This document shows positions 2,675 through 64,000 of a DNA stretch of 64,000 bases, one piece after another. The position numbers were made by a program, and so were the translations under genes. The stretch spans positions 11,798 to 75,797 of the forward strand of contig JBOGTC010000155.1 in the NCBI GenBank assembly GCA_050692055.1, given 5' to 3'. The notes under the pieces were generated by a model. It ran no database searches. It saw nothing but the letters and a program-made list of their open reading frames with translations, and had not been told where the DNA came from. This DNA comes from Candidatus Limnocylindria bacterium. Lineage in GTDB: Bacteria; Chloroflexota; Limnocylindria; QHBO01. How positions within the stretch are numbered: position 1 is the first letter of the stretch; every line of letters starts with the position of its first letter.

Positions 2675-4264
2675 TCAGCGGATGGCGTCGAGGATCTCGG
2701 GGGCGAGGCCGGCGTAGCGCTCGAGGAACTCCACGCGCTCGCGCTTGAAGCGTTCCACCCACGCACGGTACGCATCCAGGCGGCCGGTCCGCTCGTAGAG
2801 GCGCCTTGGCTGAAGCTTCTCCGGATCCGATACGCCGGGGACCGCTGATGCGACCTCGTAGCCGAAGTCGGGATCGCCCTCCCAGGTGATCGTCCCTTCG
2901 GCGATGGCCTCCACGATGGCGCCCGAATCCTCGATCGCGATCTTTTTCGAGGCATCGTCCTCATCGGTCCCGCCGACGCGGCCGGTGTTGAGCAGATAGA
3001 CCTCGAAATCGGTTGAGGCCATGAGCTCCAGGAAGCGGTTGGCCTGCATCTCGTCGCGCAGCGGGAAGAACGGGTTCGTCCCGGGCACGCGCAGCGCCTT
3101 GCCCTCCTCGGCGGCGCCGCCGGCCGAGGTGCCCTGCGTCTCGCCGAGCATGAAGTAGGCGGCCGCCTGCTCCGGCGCCAGGCGTGCGACGCCGGGGATG
3201 ATGTTGTCGTTGCGATTCAGGATCAGCAGGTAATCGACCGGGCCGATCTCGCGCGGGTCGCGCCAGATGCCCAGCGACTCCATGGGAAACGTCGCGCGGC
3301 CGTTCTTGGTGTACGAGGTGTCGAAGAAGTCGACATCGCCGCCGGCCTTGGCCTGCGAGACGTTCTCGAGGTAGGCGTCCGGCTTGACGACCGCGCCGTG
3401 GATCGCCGGCTCGTGCCGTGGATCGAGCCCGAACGTCTTGGCGAAGCAGCCGTTTTCGGTCCCGACCACGTGGCCGCCGGGGAAGAGGCCGATGAAATCG
3501 TCCTGCACCGGCTGCGAGTCGTTCTGTCGGGTAAAGGTCGTGGTGGTCTTGCCCGTGCCCGAGAGGCCGATGATGAGCATCGTCTTCTCGCCGCCGTCGG
3601 TCGGGATCACCTTGCAGCCGGCGTGCATGGCGAGGCCGCCCGCGGCATACACGCGCTCGTTCCACATCCGCAAGCCGCCCTTCTTGGACTCGCCGAAGTA
3701 ATCGGAGTTGAAGACGCGGCTGATGCCGGCCTCCAGGTCGACCGCGATGAGTCGCTCGTCGGGATAGCCGGGCATCGGCAGGTTGGGCGTGTAGATCATC
3801 ACCAGCTCCGGCTCCCACTCCTCGCCGGCCGAGTCGGGCGGGAAGTACAGGTGGCGCTGCATACCGGCGATGTTGGCGTTGGCCTCCTCGATGTACAGGC
3901 GCGCCCGCGCCCGATACTTCGGGTCGTTGCCGATGTACCCGTCCACCACGACCATTGGCTGCCGCGCGATGTGCTCGTCCTGCAGGCCGGCCACGCGCTC
4001 GTACTCGTCGCGCCTGATGGACTTGCCGGTGGTGATCGACGGGTCGTCGGTGACGAGATAGGTCGAGCCCGCGGACCGGCTGGTCGCGCGGGTCTGGACG
4101 TTGTAGTTGCCGAAGCTGGTGCGCCGCGCCTGCGGCATGCGACTGGTCAGCTCCTGCAGCTCCTCGGCGGAGGGATTGAATCGGACCGATGCGCCTGTGG
4201 CCAGGCGCTCTCCCTTCGGACCAAGGGGCGCAGCCGCTGCTGGCGGGTCGGCGAGCATGCTCAT
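2675..4264 (-). CDS. pckA: Phosphoenolpyruvate carboxykinase (ATP)
   Basis: P-loop GLSGTGKTT and overall ATP-PEPCK sequence. Start set at ATG 4264, with AAGGAG 8 nt upstream. The Arg-rich upstream extension in the track is rejected. Confidence 0.9.
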   Translation of the reverse strand: MSMLADPPAAAAPLGPKGERLATGASVRFNPSAEELQELTSRMPQARRTSFGNYNVQTRATSRSAGSTYLVTDDPSITTGKSIRRDEYERVAGLQDEHIARQPMVVVDGYIGNDPKYRARARLYIEEANANIAGMQRHLYFPPDSAGEEWEPELVMIYTPNLPMPGYPDERLIAVDLEAGISRVFNSDYFGESKKGGLRMWNERVYAAGGLAMHAGCKVIPTDGGEKTMLIIGLSGTGKTTTTFTRQNDSQPVQDDFIGLFPGGHVVGTENGCFAKTFGLDPRHEPAIHGAVVKPDAYLENVSQAKAGGDVDFFDTSYTKNGRATFPMESLGIWRDPREIGPVDYLLILNRNDNIIPGVARLAPEQAAAYFMLGETQGTSAGGAAEEGKALRVPGTNPFFPLRDEMQANRFLELMASTDFEVYLLNTGRVGGTDEDDASKKIAIEDSGAIVEAIAEGTITWEGDPDFGYEVASAVPGVSDPEKLQPRRLYERTGRLDAYRAWVERFKRERVEFLERYAGLAPEILDAIR

Positions 4265-59739: not shown

Positions 59740-60731
59740 CCCAGCAGGTCCATCACCGCGTCACGCTCCTCGAGGAGCTCGCTCAGGGTGGCGTCGACTT
59801 TGCCCTGCGCCCAGGCGCCGTGCTCGATGCCCGGCACGATCTCGACCGCGCCGGGGGCCGATGCGCGCAGCGGGTAGCCGAAGACGATCCCCTCCGGCAC
59901 GTCGTACCCACCGTCGGCGGGGGCGGGGACGGCGGACGAGAAGACTTCGCCGCTCGGCTGCGTGATGTTGCGCACGGTATCGATCACCGCGTTCGCCGCG
60001 CTTGCGGCGCTCGACTGTCCGCGCGCCTTGATGATGGCCGCGCCGCGCTGCTGGACCGTGCTGATGAACTCACCCTGCAGCCAGGCCTCGTCGTCGATCA
60101 CGTCGGTTGCCGGCCGGCCGCCGATCGTGGCGTGCCACGCATCGGGGAATTGCGAGGAGGAGTGGTTGCCCCAGATGGCCAGGCCCTGCACATCACTCAC
60201 CGCGACGCCGGACTTCGCCGCCAGCTGCGATCTGCCGCGGTTCTCGTCGAGCATGGTCATGGCGAACCATCGGTCCTTCGGCATGGCGTGACGCTCGGCT
60301 GCCGTCGAGCCGATCAGGGCGTTCGTGTTGCACGGGTTGCCCACCACCAGGACGCGACAGTCGTCTGCCGCGTTGTGCGCGATGGCCTCGCCCTGCTCGG
60401 TGAAGATGCTGCCGTTGATGCTGAGCAGGTCCTTGCGCTCCATCCCCTCCCTGCGCGGCACGGCGCCGACCAGCAGCGCCCAGTTGGCGTCGGCGAAGGC
60501 CTCCTCCGTGTCGGATGTGCACAGCACTCGACTCAGCAGCGGAAATGCGCAATCGTCGAGCTCCATGCGCACGCCATCCAGAGCGGGCAGCGCGGCTTCG
60601 AGCTCAAGCAGCTGGAGGTCGACCTTCGTGGCTGGTCCGAACATCTGTCCCGAGGCGATGCGAAAGAGGAGGGCGTAGCCGATCTGCCCGGCGGCGCCGG
60701 TGACGGCCACCCTGACGTGCGGGTCGGGCAT
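59736..60731 (-). CDS. mdh: Malate dehydrogenase (LDH-like MDH family 2)
   Basis: [21 protein letters not shown]. Start at ATG 60731 with SD AGGAGAGAG. ATGA overlap with the gltA start. Confidence 0.9.
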
Positions 60732-60794
60732 CTCTCTCCTGGTTGGTTGGGCGCGCAAGTCGAGCTTGAGTGTAGCGCAGGCTCCGGGCCACGC

Positions 60795-61298
60795 TCAGCG
60801 TGAGCGCGACCAGTCCTCGACCGCGGATGCCATGGAGGCGAAGGCGATGCGGGGCAGCCAGTCGAGGATCGCCGAGCGGGTGACCCAGGCGTGTTCGCTG
60901 GACTCGGCGTCCAGCGTGACCGGTGCATCCGGGGTCACCTGCCGGGCGCGATACACCGCCGTGACGACATTCGAGGCCGGCGAGTGATAGACACCGGTCA
61001 GGGCGAGCAGCTCGACGGCGACGCCTGCCTCCTCCCGCGTCTCGCGCAGCGCCCCCTGTTCGAACGACTCGCCCGGATCCAGGTAGCCGGCCGGCAGATC
61101 CCAGGCGCCGATGCCCGGCTCGACGGCGCGCTTCAGAAGCAGGACCGATGGCTCAGCGTCGCCATCGGCCTGGCGCTCGAGCAGCACCGCCGCCGCCGGC
61201 TTGGGGTTGGCATGCCAGCGCCATCCGCATCGGTCGCAGAGGAGAGGCTCCTCGTGAGGGTTTGAGCAATGCGGGCAGGCCGGGACGTGGAGGCTCAC
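60795..61298 (-). CDS. NUDIX hydrolase with an N-terminal zinc ribbon
   Basis: CPHC...CDRC, then the Nudix box GESFEQGALRETREEAG. Confidence 0.8.
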   Translation of the reverse strand: MSLHVPACPHCSNPHEEPLLCDRCGWRWHANPKPAAAVLLERQADGDAEPSVLLLKRAVEPGIGAWDLPAGYLDPGESFEQGALRETREEAGVAVELLALTGVYHSPASNVVTAVYRARQVTPDAPVTLDAESSEHAWVTRSAILDWLPRIAFASMASAVEDWSRSR

Positions 61299-61311
61299 GT
61301 CCGGCAGGGTA

Positions 61312-61635
61312 TCAGGAGATCTGGACGAGCCCCGTCAGGCTGGCGCCGATGCCGGCGAAGCGCTCCCGGAACCCGGGCGCGAATCCATACCAGATGTTCG
61401 TTCCGCGCCGCTCAGATATGAGGATGCCGGCCTCGCGCAGCACCTTGAGGTGATGGCTGATGGTCGGCTGAGTGACGTTGCAGCACTCGGTGAAGTCGCA
61501 GGCGCAGATCGCTTCGCCGCCGGCCTCGCCGAGCTGCCGGAGGATCGAGAGGCGGGTGGCATCGGCCATGGCGGACAGCAGCTGGACGTCTGGATCGGTG
61601 GCTCGCATGGTGGCAGCCAGTTTATCCAGAGACAT
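61312..61635 (-). CDS. arsR: ArsR/SmtB family metal(loid)-responsive repressor
   Basis: Start at ATG 61635 (MSLDKLAA...). HTH NVTQPTISHHLKVLREAG. Thiolate-rich alpha3 site ICACDFTECC. Confidence 0.85.
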   Translation of the reverse strand: MSLDKLAATMRATDPDVQLLSAMADATRLSILRQLGEAGGEAICACDFTECCNVTQPTISHHLKVLREAGILISERRGTNIWYGFAPGFRERFAGIGASLTGLVQIS

Positions 61636-61640
61636 ATATA

Positions 61641-61670
61641 TTGACAAGTATCGATGTAGCGCACTATCCT
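61641..61670 (+). promoter_or_regulatory. Sigma-70-like promoter TTGACA-N18-TATCCT in the AT-rich arsR divergent region
   Basis: TTGACA at 61641-61646 and TATCCT at 61665-61670. This is the most AT-rich stretch of the locus. Confidence 0.45.
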
Positions 61671-61704
61671 GAGGCGCCGACACGGACCGATGAGGGAACC
61701 ACGA

Positions 61705-61878
61705 ATGAGCCTCAACCATTTCCTGCTGGCGGATGCGACACATGCCGACCGCCTGCGCACGGCGGACGAGGCTCGCGCTCGTCGGGCCCTGCGCCGCGCG
61801 CTCGAGTGCTGCCGACGTTCGCTGCTGAGCCTGCTCGGCATCCAGCGCCGCGGAACTCCCTGCGGAGCCGCCTGCTGA
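61705..61878 (+). CDS. Candidate 57-aa helical protein ending ...TPCGAAC
   Basis: GAGGGA lies 7 nt before ATG 61705. High GC3. Contains CC and a C-terminal CxxxC. No family recognised. Confidence 0.3.
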   Translation: MSLNHFLLADATHADRLRTADEARARRALRRALECCRRSLLSLLGIQRRGTPCGAAC

Positions 61879-61920
61879 AGCTCGACCCGTCGCCAAGAGC
61901 CAGCGAAAGGAGGTGAGACG

Positions 61921-62001
61921 ATGCTCAGACGCGCCTGTGGCTGCGACTGCGACTGCGGTGACTGCGGCCCTGACTGCTGTCCGACCGGTCCCTGCTGCTG
62001 A
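61921..62001 (+). CDS. 26-aa Cys-rich peptide MLRRACGCDCDCGDCGPDCCPTGPCC (metallothionein-like candidate)
   Basis: AAAGGAGG lies 6-7 nt upstream of ATG 61921. 9 Cys in 26 residues. Too short for the ORF track. Confidence 0.55.
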   Translation: MLRRACGCDCDCGDCGPDCCPTGPCC

Positions 62002-62007
62002 ACTGAA

Positions 62008-62046
62008 CGGCCGGGGAGCGACAAGGCATGGTCGTACCCCCGGCCG
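62008..62046. terminator. Hairpin CGGCCGGGG-N21-CCCCGGCCG between the convergent peptide gene and arsC
   Basis: 9-bp GC stem. Large loop and no U-tract. Confidence 0.25.
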
Positions 62047-62053
62047 CCGTCGA

Positions 62054-62521
62054 CTATTCGCGAATGCGGGTCGGTTCGGGAATCGGCAGGTCGTCCCGGC
62101 CCGCGGCCAGGATGAACATATGGACCCGGTCGCGGATGACATCGCGAGCCTCGCGAAAGGCCGCCAGTCGCGCTTCCTCGTCACCTTCCACAGCCGACGG
62201 ATCGTCGATGCTCCAGTGGGCCTGGTTCTGCACGCCGGGAATGGTTGGGCACGCCTCGCGAGCCTGGTCGCAGACCGTGATCAGCCAGGTGAAGGCCTCA
62301 CCCAGGAACGGCCCCAGGGTCTTCGATGACTGGCGACGGATGTCGATTCCGATCTCGTCCATGACCGCGATCGCCTCCGGACGCACCTGCGTCGCTTCGG
62401 TTCCGGCGCTGAAGGCCTCGAACGTCTCGCTGCCCCACGCGCGCAGCATCCCCTCGGCCATCTGGCTTCGAGCGCTGTTGTGGGTGCAGACGAAGAGAAC
62501 ACGCCTCGGATCTGTGCTCAT
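62054..62521 (-). CDS. arsC: Arsenate reductase (LMW-PTP/thioredoxin-coupled ArsC type)
   Basis: CTHNSARS (CX5R P-loop) and downstream Cys residues. Confidence 0.85.
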   Translation of the reverse strand: MSTDPRRVLFVCTHNSARSQMAEGMLRAWGSETFEAFSAGTEATQVRPEAIAVMDEIGIDIRRQSSKTLGPFLGEAFTWLITVCDQAREACPTIPGVQNQAHWSIDDPSAVEGDEEARLAAFREARDVIRDRVHMFILAAGRDDLPIPEPTRIRE

Positions 62522-62529
62522 CGCTACCG

Positions 62530-62535
62530 ATGCTA
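62530..62535 (-). promoter_or_regulatory. -10 box TAGCAT, 8 nt upstream of the arsC ATG (leaderless layout)
   Basis: Minus strand reads gTAGCATcggtagcgATG. Confidence 0.4.
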
Positions 62536-62591
62536 CGCCGCCGATGTCAACGCCGTGTCAAGGACCGTCAATGTCCACATTGGGGATGCCG

Positions 62592-62633
62592 TGTGGATAA
62601 GTCCGGTAAGTCGCTGATAAGTCGGGGATAAGG
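62592..62633. repeat. Four about-10-bp-phased direct repeats G(A/G)TAAG(T/G)C, the first embedded in a perfect DnaA-box-like TGTGGATAA
   Basis: GATAAGTC at 62596, GTAAGTC at 62606, GATAAGTC at 62616, GATAAGG at 62627. Confidence 0.6.
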
Positions 62634-62776
62634 GGTATTGCGTGGGGTTCCGAGCGGCACCTATGCTCTGGTTGTTCCGAAGGGGCAGCCAACGGCACCA
62701 GAGATTGCATCAACGGTCCGGCGGCGGTTCCTTCGGGACTTTTCTATGTGCGCGGCCCTGTGCCCCGGCCGCGTTG

Positions 62777-62839
62777 CCCCTTCGCGTCGCGTTCCCCCTT
62801 CGCGTCGCGTTTCGCCGCCTCCGTTCCGCCGCCTCCGTT
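62777..62839. repeat. Two short tandem duplications (17-mer CCCCTTCGCGTCGCGTT x2; 11-mer CCGCCTCCGTT x2)
   Basis: Read directly from the sequence at 62777/62795 and 62815/62829. Confidence 0.8.
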
Positions 62840-62860
62840 GCCCCGTCTGCGTTGCATGAG

Positions 62861-62979
62861 ATGGAGGTAACGGCGAAGAAGTGAGCCGAAACGGCCGGAA
62901 GTTCGCCGCCTGTTGCATGAGGTGCAACCAGCGGGGAACGCGGCCCGGAGATCGGCCCTTACTTCCCTGTTACCTCCAT
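62861..62979. repeat. Intergenic inverted-repeat element E (arms ATGGAGGTAAC / GTTACCTCCAT)
   Basis: 11-bp perfect arms 97 bp apart. Internal hairpin GTTGCAtgaggTGCAAC. Confidence 0.6.
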
Positions 62980-63020
62980 GTGGTGAAAATTTCTGCGGAA
63001 GCTCCGGGGTATCCGGGCGG

Positions 63021-63758
63021 TCAGGCTTCTCGTCCGAGGTCTCGCTGCAGGCGTCGGACGACCTCGGCCGTCTCATCGTCCGGACCATGGCCGGGTTCGG
63101 AGGCGGGCCCGGCGAAGGTACCGAACTGGCGATCACCTGCGTCGCCCAGCCCCGGCACGATGTACCCGCGCTCGTTCAGGTGGGAGTCGACCGCCGCCAC
63201 GTGAATGTCGACGTCCGGGTGCGCAGCCGAGAGGGTGGCGATCCCCTCCGGCGCGGCGATGAGCGACACCTGCTTCACCCGCGCGGCGCCCCATGCTTTG
63301 AGAATGTCGACGGTCGCGGCGGCCGAACCGCCGGTGGCCAGCATCGGGTCGAGGATGAGGCACACCTGGACCGTCGCCGCGTCGGGCAGCTTGTTGTAGT
63401 ACTCGACCGGCTTGAGCGTCCGCTCGTCGCGGTACAGGCCGATGTGCCACACCTCGGCCGTCGGCAGTAGCTCGAGCATGGCATCGACCATCCCCAGGCC
63501 GGCGCGCAGGATCGGGATCAGGCCCACGCGGGGCTCGAGCACGGCGCCGTCCATCGGCTCCAGCGGAGTCTCGATCGGCGTAGGCTGGGTGGCAAGGTCG
63601 GCCATCGCCTCGTAGCCGAGCAGCCAGGTCAGCTCGCGGACGAGCTCGCGAAACGTCTTGGGCTCGGTGCCCTTGTCGCGCAGCAGCGACAGCTTGTGCG
63701 CCAGCAGCGGATGGCGGCTGACGTGGACCGATGTCGGGAGGGCGGGCGCGTCTGGCAT
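63021..63758 (-). CDS. upp: Uracil phosphoribosyltransferase
   Basis: PRPP-binding [12 protein letters not shown] and [12 protein letters not shown]. Has a short C-terminal extension. Confidence 0.9.
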
Positions 63759-63766
63759 CGGCGCCG

Positions 63767-63772
63767 ATTCTA
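63767..63772 (-). promoter_or_regulatory. -10 box TAGAAT, 8 nt upstream of the upp ATG (leaderless layout)
   Basis: Minus strand reads gacTAGAATcggcgccgATG. Confidence 0.4.
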
Positions 63773-64000
63773 GTCCTCGGCAGGGTGCTTAGCCGCCGCT
63801 CCGCAGGTCCGAACGCACCTCCGCTGTCTGCGCCGGCCGATCCGCTGCCCGATGACCACGAGCTGATACGAAATCGCGCAAGCTTGACACGGGACTACCT
63901 CCACTGGCGGCATGCTGGTAGGCTTACCATCCTTACACGACCCATCGCGCAACGGACCGTGCCCAGGCCGTCGCTCGGCCCGTACCAGGAGGAGGAGGAG

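Follow-up and report, generated by a model that had tools for sequence, protein, structure and literature searches.

Small cysteine-rich peptides encoded beside arsR in Candidatus Limnocylindria and their possible role in arsenite handling

What is the product of a 26-codon open reading frame (ORF) which carries nine cysteine codons and lies between a divergent arsR gene and a convergent arsC gene? This question is raised by a 64-kb stretch of Candidatus Limnocylindria DNA (the window, mean G+C content 70%), in which the ORF, encoding MLRRACGCDCDCGDCGPDCCPTGPCC with nine Cys and four Asp, occupies positions 61921-62001 on the forward strand. An earlier note, made from the sequence alone, had pointed out this ORF as a possible metal-binding peptide, and it is present as described there. 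The Shine-Dalgarno (SD) sequence which the note placed before the ATG at 61921 is present too, with coordinates one base off: AAAGGAGG, with the core GGAGGTGA, is located at 61906-61913, not 61907-61914, 7 nt 5' of the ATG. We report here that the peptide is one of at least 16 distinct members, with 12-26 residues and 6-9 Cys, of a family found in metagenome-assembled genomes (MAGs) of Candidatus Limnocylindria and in soil metagenomes, and we discuss whether binding of As(III) could be the function of this family.

Using the ArsR protein of the window as query against GTDB species representatives, we obtained 14 loci of Limnocylindria and Chloroflexia (54-73% identity), followed by Actinomycetota at about 45-50%, and a metagenome scan with the alignment of the ArsR clade added 80 further loci (loci are given below by their L numbers). 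The exact ArsR, and a 57/62-residue ORF which precedes the peptide gene and is called ORF-A here, were found in NCBI MAGs of Candidatus Limnocylindria (Chloroflexota). A blind search of all six frames for segments dense in Cys revealed tiny ORFs divergent from ArsR in 6 of the 14 species. The peptides include MPRGCCDPDCCPGDCC (L001), MRKDDGCCDGCCESTGGACC (L003), MCCDPDCCSDCC (L006), MARRTDGCDCDCCCCGGCC (L007), MCCDPGCCDGPCC (L008) and MEPTRCDCDCCSEGCCSPGCC (L009), and from metagenomes MACCDCPGPCCPGGC (L091/92), MVRSGCCDSDCCGSGSDCCGSGCC (L146), M(MK)MRSNDGCCDDGCCEATGGACC (L085) and a partial copy in L081. Every family member starts with ATG and has a strong SD (GAAAGGAGGTGAG, with the same core) 6-9 nt upstream, and consecutive Cys codons at the C-terminus, TGC-TGC-stop, end all members but one; in the seven loci found first, ATG, strong SD and Cys-Cys-stop were all present. 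Ten peptides together contain 69 Cys in 187 residues (37%), the next most frequent residues being Gly, Asp, Pro and Ser; the motifs CC, CxC and CCxxxCC occur, and His, Phe, Tyr and Trp are absent. Such a low-molecular-weight, Cys-dense and aromatic-poor composition is like that of metallothioneins in the operational sense (about 30% Cys).

The position and the conservation of these ORFs are informative about their coding status. A mini-ORF detector (8-45 residues, at least 30% Cys, strong SD, ATG) was applied to about 0.95 Mb of related loci, and nine of its ten distinct hits lay no more than 350 nt downstream of an ArsR operator, a zone which makes up 4.2% of the strand positions (P = 3.8e-12). 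Hits without an SD were wrong-frame segments rich in Trp, Arg and hydrophobic residues, or C-terminal tails of ArsM. When five close loci were aligned, the variable columns of the ORF numbered 3, 2 and 10 at codon positions 1, 2 and 3, respectively, and the sole indel was exactly one codon long. Invariant columns made up 48 of 66 (73%) in the ORF, 4 of 60 (7%) directly behind the stop and 1 of 28 in the spacer that precedes the SD, and the conserved pattern takes in Asp, Gly and Pro besides Cys. The third-position bias, the one-codon indel and the drop of conservation at the stop argue that the ORF is translated and selected, and we regard it with high confidence as a real coding gene; its translation we infer from the SD, the ATG and the coding-type selection. 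The earlier note had made much depend on whether the small ORF is kept beside ArsR genes in relatives, and it is so kept.

ORF-A, located at 61705-61878 on the forward strand, offered an independent way to the same peptides. The earlier note had mentioned a possible 57-residue ORF upstream; it exists (MSLNHFLL...GTPCGAAC, or 62 residues from an alternative start at 61690) and belongs to a conserved small-protein family of 49-62 residues. About 20 cluster representatives of this family are known, all annotated as 'hypothetical' and from Limnocylindria wherever the source is named, with the pattern MDL[VG][TL]EL..HEAE..R.RR..CR[RQ]RL[LF]G..P...C-x2-3-C. The C-terminal Cys motif, CR[RQ]xL[LF]G..P..C-x2-3-C, was found only in loci which also carry the Cys peptide. 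Among 12 loci fetched through ORF-A homologues, ArsR was divergent from ORF-A in all 12, and in all 12 an unannotated SD-led Cys-rich ORF followed 23-175 nt after ORF-A. This was an independent prediction test of the peptide family, which could have failed. The peptides obtained in this way were of three types: MRSVRFGCCD[ND]GCQGGCDCGCC, MMTMR[SR]NDGCCDGGCCEATGGACC and MWRNDDCCDGGCCEATGGACC. In all 10 of these loci that reach past ArsR, ArsM is located beside ArsR. From its position, the peptide gene is predicted to form with ORF-A a short operon transcribed divergently from arsR. ORF-A had no Pfam or NCBIfam match; it was predicted by a gene caller (57 residues) in GCA_975322505.1, and its AlphaFold2 model is one long basic helix (residues 3-43; predicted local distance difference test score, pLDDT, 75) with a flexible Cys-bearing tail. 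The three conserved Cys of ORF-A could form one As(III) site.

Some further observations concern ORF-A. ORF-A and the Cys peptide share one reading frame in the window (61705-62001), with only a TGA (61876-61878) and 14 sense codons between them. A fusion of the two by selenocysteine or readthrough was considered and rejected, as the frames differ in L003 and L081; the common frame is probably a coincidence. The ORF-A homologue of L007 (about 3777-3890, reverse strand) keeps the C-terminal motif ...CRAFILGIFPVRAACSRC-stop with the N-terminal part in another frame, which would be either an assembly frameshift or a decaying copy. In L010 and L011, loci without the Cys peptide, a different ORF of 58-59 residues (MSLYYSPRLVKLLTEERLREA...TCAC-stop) is located on the divergent strand, about 90 nt upstream of where ArsR starts, after the operator and before a divergent ArsM. 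Databases list this ORF as 'hypothetical protein', with up to 19 contigs carrying it, and it may be distantly related to ORF-A.

The peptides are absent from protein collections. No exact copy of five peptides was present among 15 billion proteins, the 40-residue stop-to-stop translation gave nothing in a search of 5.8 billion proteins, and in an exhaustive HMMER search of 1.84 billion proteins the sole match was an irrelevant 577-residue repeat protein. The window peptide did not match any Pfam or NCBIfam model, and three other members likewise had no Pfam match at E <= 1; the BmtA/SmtA profile PF02069 was matched neither by the window peptide nor by these three. The earlier note had judged the peptide to be unrelated to SmtA/BmtA and MymT, which is in line with the lack of a match to any curated family. 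In the literature we searched, no description of such a peptide family was found. No gene caller had predicted the 26-residue ORF in the NCBI MAGs with the exact ArsR, and the peptides are invisible in protein databases because gene callers skip ORFs so short. Two other identities were tried and rejected. A known riboswitch or small RNA (sRNA) was not supported, since an Rfam scan of 60500-64000 gave no credible family. A precursor of a ribosomally synthesized and post-translationally modified peptide (SCIFF/ranthipeptide, methanobactin or similar) had no NCBIfam or Pfam match, and radical-SAM, MbnBC-like and protease/transporter genes were present in none of the loci.

If the peptide gene is real, by what is it controlled? 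The divergent gene at 61312-61608 (reverse strand) encodes 98 residues (...GEAICACDFTECCNVTQPTISHHL...) and had been read as an ArsR/SmtB repressor with the sensing site ICACDFTECC. Profile searches support this reading, with 75.4 bits against NF033788 (cutoff 55) and 45.7 bits against the winged-helix domain HTH_5 (PF01022), and among solved structures its nearest match is 6J0E, the As-responsive ArsR of C. glutamicum. The putative thiolate site, C35-A-C37-D-F-T-E-C42-C43, is in the alpha3 region; C35, C37, C42 and C43 are invariant among 10 clade members, and the Cys spacing differs from that of R773 ArsR.

A palindrome at 61638-61657, ATATTGACAAGTATCGATGT, is the putative ArsR operator, recognised by its conservation among Limnocylindria loci with the consensus ATATTGAC-N4-GTCAATAT. 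It includes the TTGACA box and overlaps the -35 boxes of the two divergent promoters; in the 64 kb its pattern is found a single time, with 0.00 occurrences expected. All Limnocylindria loci have this operator ahead of both arsR and the peptide gene; as a rule two copies in tandem, with a 4-nt overlap, are located between the peptide operon and arsR. In L001 a perfect operator copy stands 36 nt before the SD of the peptide gene, although 1.8 kb separate this gene from arsR, which argues that the peptide gene is a direct member of the regulon and not a bystander of the arsR promoter. We infer that ArsR binds the predicted operator, and the peptide gene is likely to belong to the ArsR regulon. 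The SmtB/SmtA-like layout suggested by the earlier note thus agrees with a peptide behind a conserved operator that is common to the divergent ArsR. The sigma-70-like promoter TTGACA-N18-TATCCT, which the note had proposed in an AT-rich stretch, was recovered for ORF-A and the peptide at 61641-61670 (forward strand) with a score of 10/12 in a consensus scan, which gave two promoter-like sites against 0.1 expected. The stretch contains the lowest-G+C 50-nt piece of the 64 kb (36%, with an average of 70%). In the same scan the arsR promoter was assigned to TTGTCA-N17-TAAACT at 61647-61619 (reverse strand). The true -10 box of the peptide promoter is uncertain: relatives have an AT-rich hexamer at the right edge of the operator.

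Genes around the ArsR clade give the link with arsenic. Methyltransferases beside ArsR scored 288-291 bits against NF008823 'arsenite methyltransferase' (cutoff 263), and such ArsM genes adjoin ArsR in at least 18 ArsR-anchored loci; ArsC and ArsP_1 permeases also adjoin the clade of ArsR and operator. Many of the ArsM proteins continue with a linker of 20-40 residues and then a Cys tail with the same motifs as the peptides, with endings such as ...GCGCGSGGCC, ...GCCGGDGCC, ...GCCGRDGCC, ...DLCCGSGGCCG and, in a Nocardia, ...ACCGSDCCS. Tails were seen in L002 (4305-5120), L003 (2811-3617), L005, L008, L016, L045, L082, L085, L087, L094 and others. Tailed ArsM occur in many Limnocylindria and some Actinomycetota, and in other ArsM the sequence ends directly behind ...KATKPA. 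In the Actinomycetota MAG L021, an SD-led mini-ORF of 19 residues, MPDLCECEYCTCETCDASC (2953-3012, reverse strand), follows 43 nt after a tail-less ArsM and looks like a detached ArsM tail; no ArsR operator is near it. Other Cys/Gly/Asp segments of the '...CC-stop' kind in about 1 Mb were ArsM tails only. The literature searched did not contain a description of the function of ArsM Cys tails. Because the module exists as part of an As(III) enzyme and also in detached form, the gene-fusion (Rosetta stone) argument suggests that the free peptides take part in As(III) handling. The context, through ArsM and its tails with like motifs, points to arsenic over Cd, Cu or Zn.

The genes which follow the peptide gene are variable. 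One layout has no co-directional gene: a strong hairpin is followed by a gene that is convergent or distant (window, L001, L006, L091/92, L146, L162-164 and L171-173). In L007 and L009, a DinB_2/MST/YfiT-like gene begins 12-21 nt after the peptide stop. In L003, L008, L085 and L165-170, there is usually a hairpin, sometimes a DUF1059-like mini-protein, and then a DUF47 (PhoU_div) gene with a PHO4/Pit transporter. Since this cargo varies and many copies are monocistronic, we consider the peptide itself to be the product. The window hairpin, G+C-rich and located at 62008-62046 between the peptide stop and the arsC stop, had RNAfold energies of -28 to -44 kcal/mol, and a strict terminator scan gave no site in the region, where the hairpins have no T-run; the window hairpin, which lacks a U-tract, probably terminates transcription in both directions. 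Strong hairpins after the peptide stop are also present in L003, L006, L008, L091/92, L146, L162-164, L169-170 and L171-173.

The convergent gene at 62054-62521 (reverse strand, 155 residues) had been described as an arsenate reductase of the low-molecular-weight protein tyrosine phosphatase type. It is matched by PF01451 with 64.8 bits, and scored 121.6 bits against TIGR02691, under the cutoff of 174.3; the sequence has a CTHNSARS (CX5R) loop and a VCDQAREAC Cys pair, as an ArsC-like protein of the thioredoxin-coupled type. Convergent arsC is also present in L006 and L009 and absent from L001; it is a neighbour and no constant partner of the peptide.

Putting these results together, we lean slightly towards a thiol peptide derepressed through ArsR, either a mini-metallothionein or a stand-alone ArsM tail, whose function would be the binding of As(III). 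In this model, ArsR dimers on the operator would repress both overlapped promoters, as its conservation suggests. As(III), and possibly Sb(III) or methyl-As(III), would bind the CxCD...CC thiolates of ArsR and cause its release, as may be expected from the family. The very strong SD would then give an abundant peptide of Cys, Asp, Gly and Pro. Its 6-9 thiols may chelate As(III) as As(Cys)3, with two or three ions per peptide, and so buffer free arsenite. From the fusion pattern, the peptide would probably also act as a thiol carrier, handing As(III) to ArsM or other ars proteins, and the Cys tail of ArsM would do the same hand-over in cis. To judge from its fold, the hairpin would end the transcript before the convergent arsC, and in the cargo operons it would lower downstream expression. 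The whole would be a miniature arsenic-dedicated metallothionein, or a gene-encoded phytochelatin, under SmtB/SmtA-style control. The proposed As(III)-thiol chemistry has a precedent, because metallothioneins and phytochelatins chelate As(III) in eukaryotes, where they are arsenic-induced (PMC8618186).

Several points weigh against arsenite binding as the function. All sequences are from MAGs or metagenomes of uncultured organisms, and within the fetched part of the window locus there is no efflux pump or ArsM. A length of 12-26 residues is that of leader peptides, and unloaded peptides of this length may not be stable in the cytoplasm. Nine Cys with Asp residues between them would also suit an M(II)3Cys9 cluster, CxCD sites in alpha3 also sense Cd, Pb and Zn in CadC-type proteins, and the ArsP_1-type neighbours resemble Cu/Zn efflux families, weakly. 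In about half of the locus types co-directional genes are located 3' of the peptide, and a regulatory role is possible there. A part of these points would suit a metallothionein for soft metals (Cd, Zn, Cu(I), Pb or Hg) under an SmtB/CadC/CmtR-like sensor, with arsenic incidental. The CxCD of ArsR aligns with the CVCD of CadC-like Lmo1102 at the alpha3 position, CadC is among the PDB matches, the divergent arrangement of repressor and peptide is that of SmtB/SmtA, and some operons encode a small Cys protein of DUF1059-like type. We nevertheless find this explanation unlikely: the constant companions are arsenic genes, namely ArsM above its curated cutoff and ArsC, and genes for metal P-type ATPases, CDF or Mer proteins were not seen adjoining. 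Like Cys motifs are fused to ArsM and not to metal transporters, the top PDB match of the repressor is an As-responsive ArsR, and the lack of His separates the peptides from almost all bacterial metallothioneins (PMC12193353).

Could the ORF instead be a regulatory leader, in which Cys codons stall ribosomes under a shortage of Cys-tRNA, as might arise from the draining of thiols by arsenite, and so tune downstream genes while the peptide has no function? Its length and the consecutive C-terminal Cys codons would suit this, as in Ms5788A-type short ORFs (bioRxiv 10.1101/834739), and so would the DinB/YfiT-like gene close behind the stop in L007 and L009 and the DUF47-Pit genes behind a hairpin in L003, L008, L085 and L165-170. 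Yet the gene is not leaderless and has an SD among the strongest possible, seven locus types have no co-directional follower, and where downstream genes exist they are not those of cysteine metabolism. Moreover, a paused ribosome would cover nearly the whole ORF and leave no room for an ORF-borne antiterminator, the L007/L009 junction folds without a specific duplex hiding the next ribosome-binding site (RBS), Asp, Gly and Pro are conserved as well as Cys, and the motif also occurs as a protein tail on ArsM; a leader thus seems to us quite improbable. We give as little credit to a gene-encoded low-molecular-weight thiol, which would serve as reductant or co-substrate for a DinB/YfiT-like S-transferase or as electron donor of ArsC in a lineage which may lack glutathione, mycothiol and bacillithiol. 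The probable translational coupling with the co-transcribed DinB_2/MST/YfiT-like gene in L007 and L009, and the thioredoxin-type ArsC adjoining in the window, L006 and L009, speak for it, but each of these neighbours is present in a minority of loci, and the thiol-transferase equivalog scores are far under the cutoff (58 against 160 bits). Least probable by far is a functionless chance ORF, or a decaying 3' remnant of ArsM. DNA of 70% G+C readily yields TGC-rich frames, the motifs are like those of ArsM tails and gene callers never predicted the ORF, but the positional enrichment, the SD and ATG kept in every copy, the coding signature with its sharp end at the stop and the 12/12 result of the ORF-A-anchored test all stand against chance. 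The window locus has no ArsM similarity, which together with the coding-type selection led us to reject the remnant; the chance reading is in effect refuted by the conservation data.

How does the proposed arsenite-binding peptide compare with known systems? Bacterial metallothioneins known so far have 50-70 residues and nearly always contain His (PMC12193353). The SmtB/SmtA (BmtA) system is alike in having an ArsR/SmtB-family repressor divergent from a small Cys-rich sequestering product, an operator in the common promoter region and, as proposed here, derepression driven by the ion. SmtA differs in its 56 residues, Zn4Cys9His2-type cluster, zinc-finger-like fold, PF02069 membership and zinc context, whereas the present peptides have 12-26 residues, no His, no sequence similarity to SmtA and an ArsM/ArsC context. 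Two other metallothioneins may be compared: MymT, the mycobacterial copper metallothionein of 53 residues, and the fungal Cu-metallothionein of Neurospora crassa with 26 residues. Both are gene-encoded, very small and rich in Cys, with CxC and CC motifs, and the latter shows that about 26 residues suffice for a functional metallothionein. They have no sequence relation to the present family and have Cu(I) as ligand or inducer, whereas the present family is ArsR-type regulated. Several members have only 12-16 residues, smaller than any metallothionein we know of. Phytochelatins differ in being made enzymatically from glutathione in eukaryotes or cyanobacteria, whereas the present peptides would be ribosomal, bacterial and ArsR-controlled.

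The Cys tails of ArsM share with the peptides the elements CC-x2-3-CC, CGCG and CC-stop, the richness in Gly, Ser and Asp, and one regulon. The tails are tethered by their 20-40-residue linker, whereas the peptides are free, with their own SD, often their own operator or promoter, and a terminator. The mycobacterial polycysteine short-ORF attenuators of Canestrari et al. (bioRxiv 10.1101/834739) are leaderless, stand before genes of cysteine metabolism and work by a duplex that sequesters the RBS. They are alike as unannotated short ORFs with terminal consecutive Cys codons at operon heads in high-G+C bacteria. The present genes differ in their strong SD and arsenic loci and are often monocistronic with a terminator; the SD stands 6-9 nt before every ATG, and the 5' region in the window holds ORF-A, so that they are not leaderless. 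The metalloid chaperone ArsD is a protein of about 120 residues with a thioredoxin-like fold. ArsD and AntC of the ant operon are small Cys proteins passing As(III)/Sb(III) to a partner (PMC12641948), and the present loci differ in having no ATPase partner. In kind, the family would be one of repressor-controlled thiol-rich sequestering peptides; new would be the sequence family, the unusually small size, the arsenic context and the relation of fused and free forms through ArsM.

Some other features were observed in these loci. In L003, L008, L085 and L165-L170, the DUF1059-like Cys protein which sometimes precedes the DUF47 gene has 59-70 residues, and the DUF47-Pit operon behind an ArsR operator suggests an arsenic-responsive control of phosphate, or arsenate, uptake. 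Between arsC and upp there is a non-coding element of about 85 nt (window 62655-62739, forward strand; L001 1927-2011, reverse strand), whose conservation between the window and L001 (92% identity) exceeds that of the flanking genes. The window has a single copy of it, and in L006 (3148-3414, reverse strand) it is duplicated or extended. The element folds into a long hairpin (CCGAAGGGGCAGCC...GGCGGTTCCTTCGGG). It is not a tRNA and has no Rfam family, and could be an sRNA or a 3' untranslated region element of a new type. The spacer from this element to upp (62764-62988) is repeat-rich and strain-specific, with tandem direct repeats of 18 nt (62770-62805) and 14 nt (62808-62835) and a 27-nt inverted repeat (62852-62878 / 62962-62988). 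In Nonomuraea, an ORF MT(T/S)xCCTPxAQETCCALEAKxxCCG... with an N-terminal triple-CC motif is located about 3 kb from ArsR (L047 528-587, L052 566-625, L061 1011-1070, all reverse strand). The Chloroflexia MAG L013 carries a Cys-rich segment, ...MMNCGCGGCGGSCDCCGTADS..., just upstream of ArsR on the same strand (3331-3390, forward), which may be a small ORF of its own or the terminal part of a larger protein.

Arsenic resistance of bacteria has been described as efflux, reduction, methylation and a few chaperones, and sequestration by thiol peptides has been deemed eukaryotic. With more reserve than for the arsenite binding itself, and somewhat doubtfully, we propose that the present family would be the first natural bacterial arsenite-inducible ribosomal thiol chelator or carrier, that its 12-26-residue members would be the smallest metallothionein-like products known, and that it would represent a detachable ArsM tail feeding methylation, together with the three-Cys ORF-A. 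The absence of the peptides from the 15-billion-protein collection shows that coding capacity below about 30 codons is missed by metagenome annotation. The peptides and the pair of operator and repressor would be ready parts for arsenic biosensors and bioaccumulation strains. If our interpretation is true, the ArsR-controlled Cys peptides would be a new ars component in an abundant uncultured soil lineage, and their likeness to ArsM tails suggests a route of As(III) to the methyltransferase in organisms that may lack glutathione.

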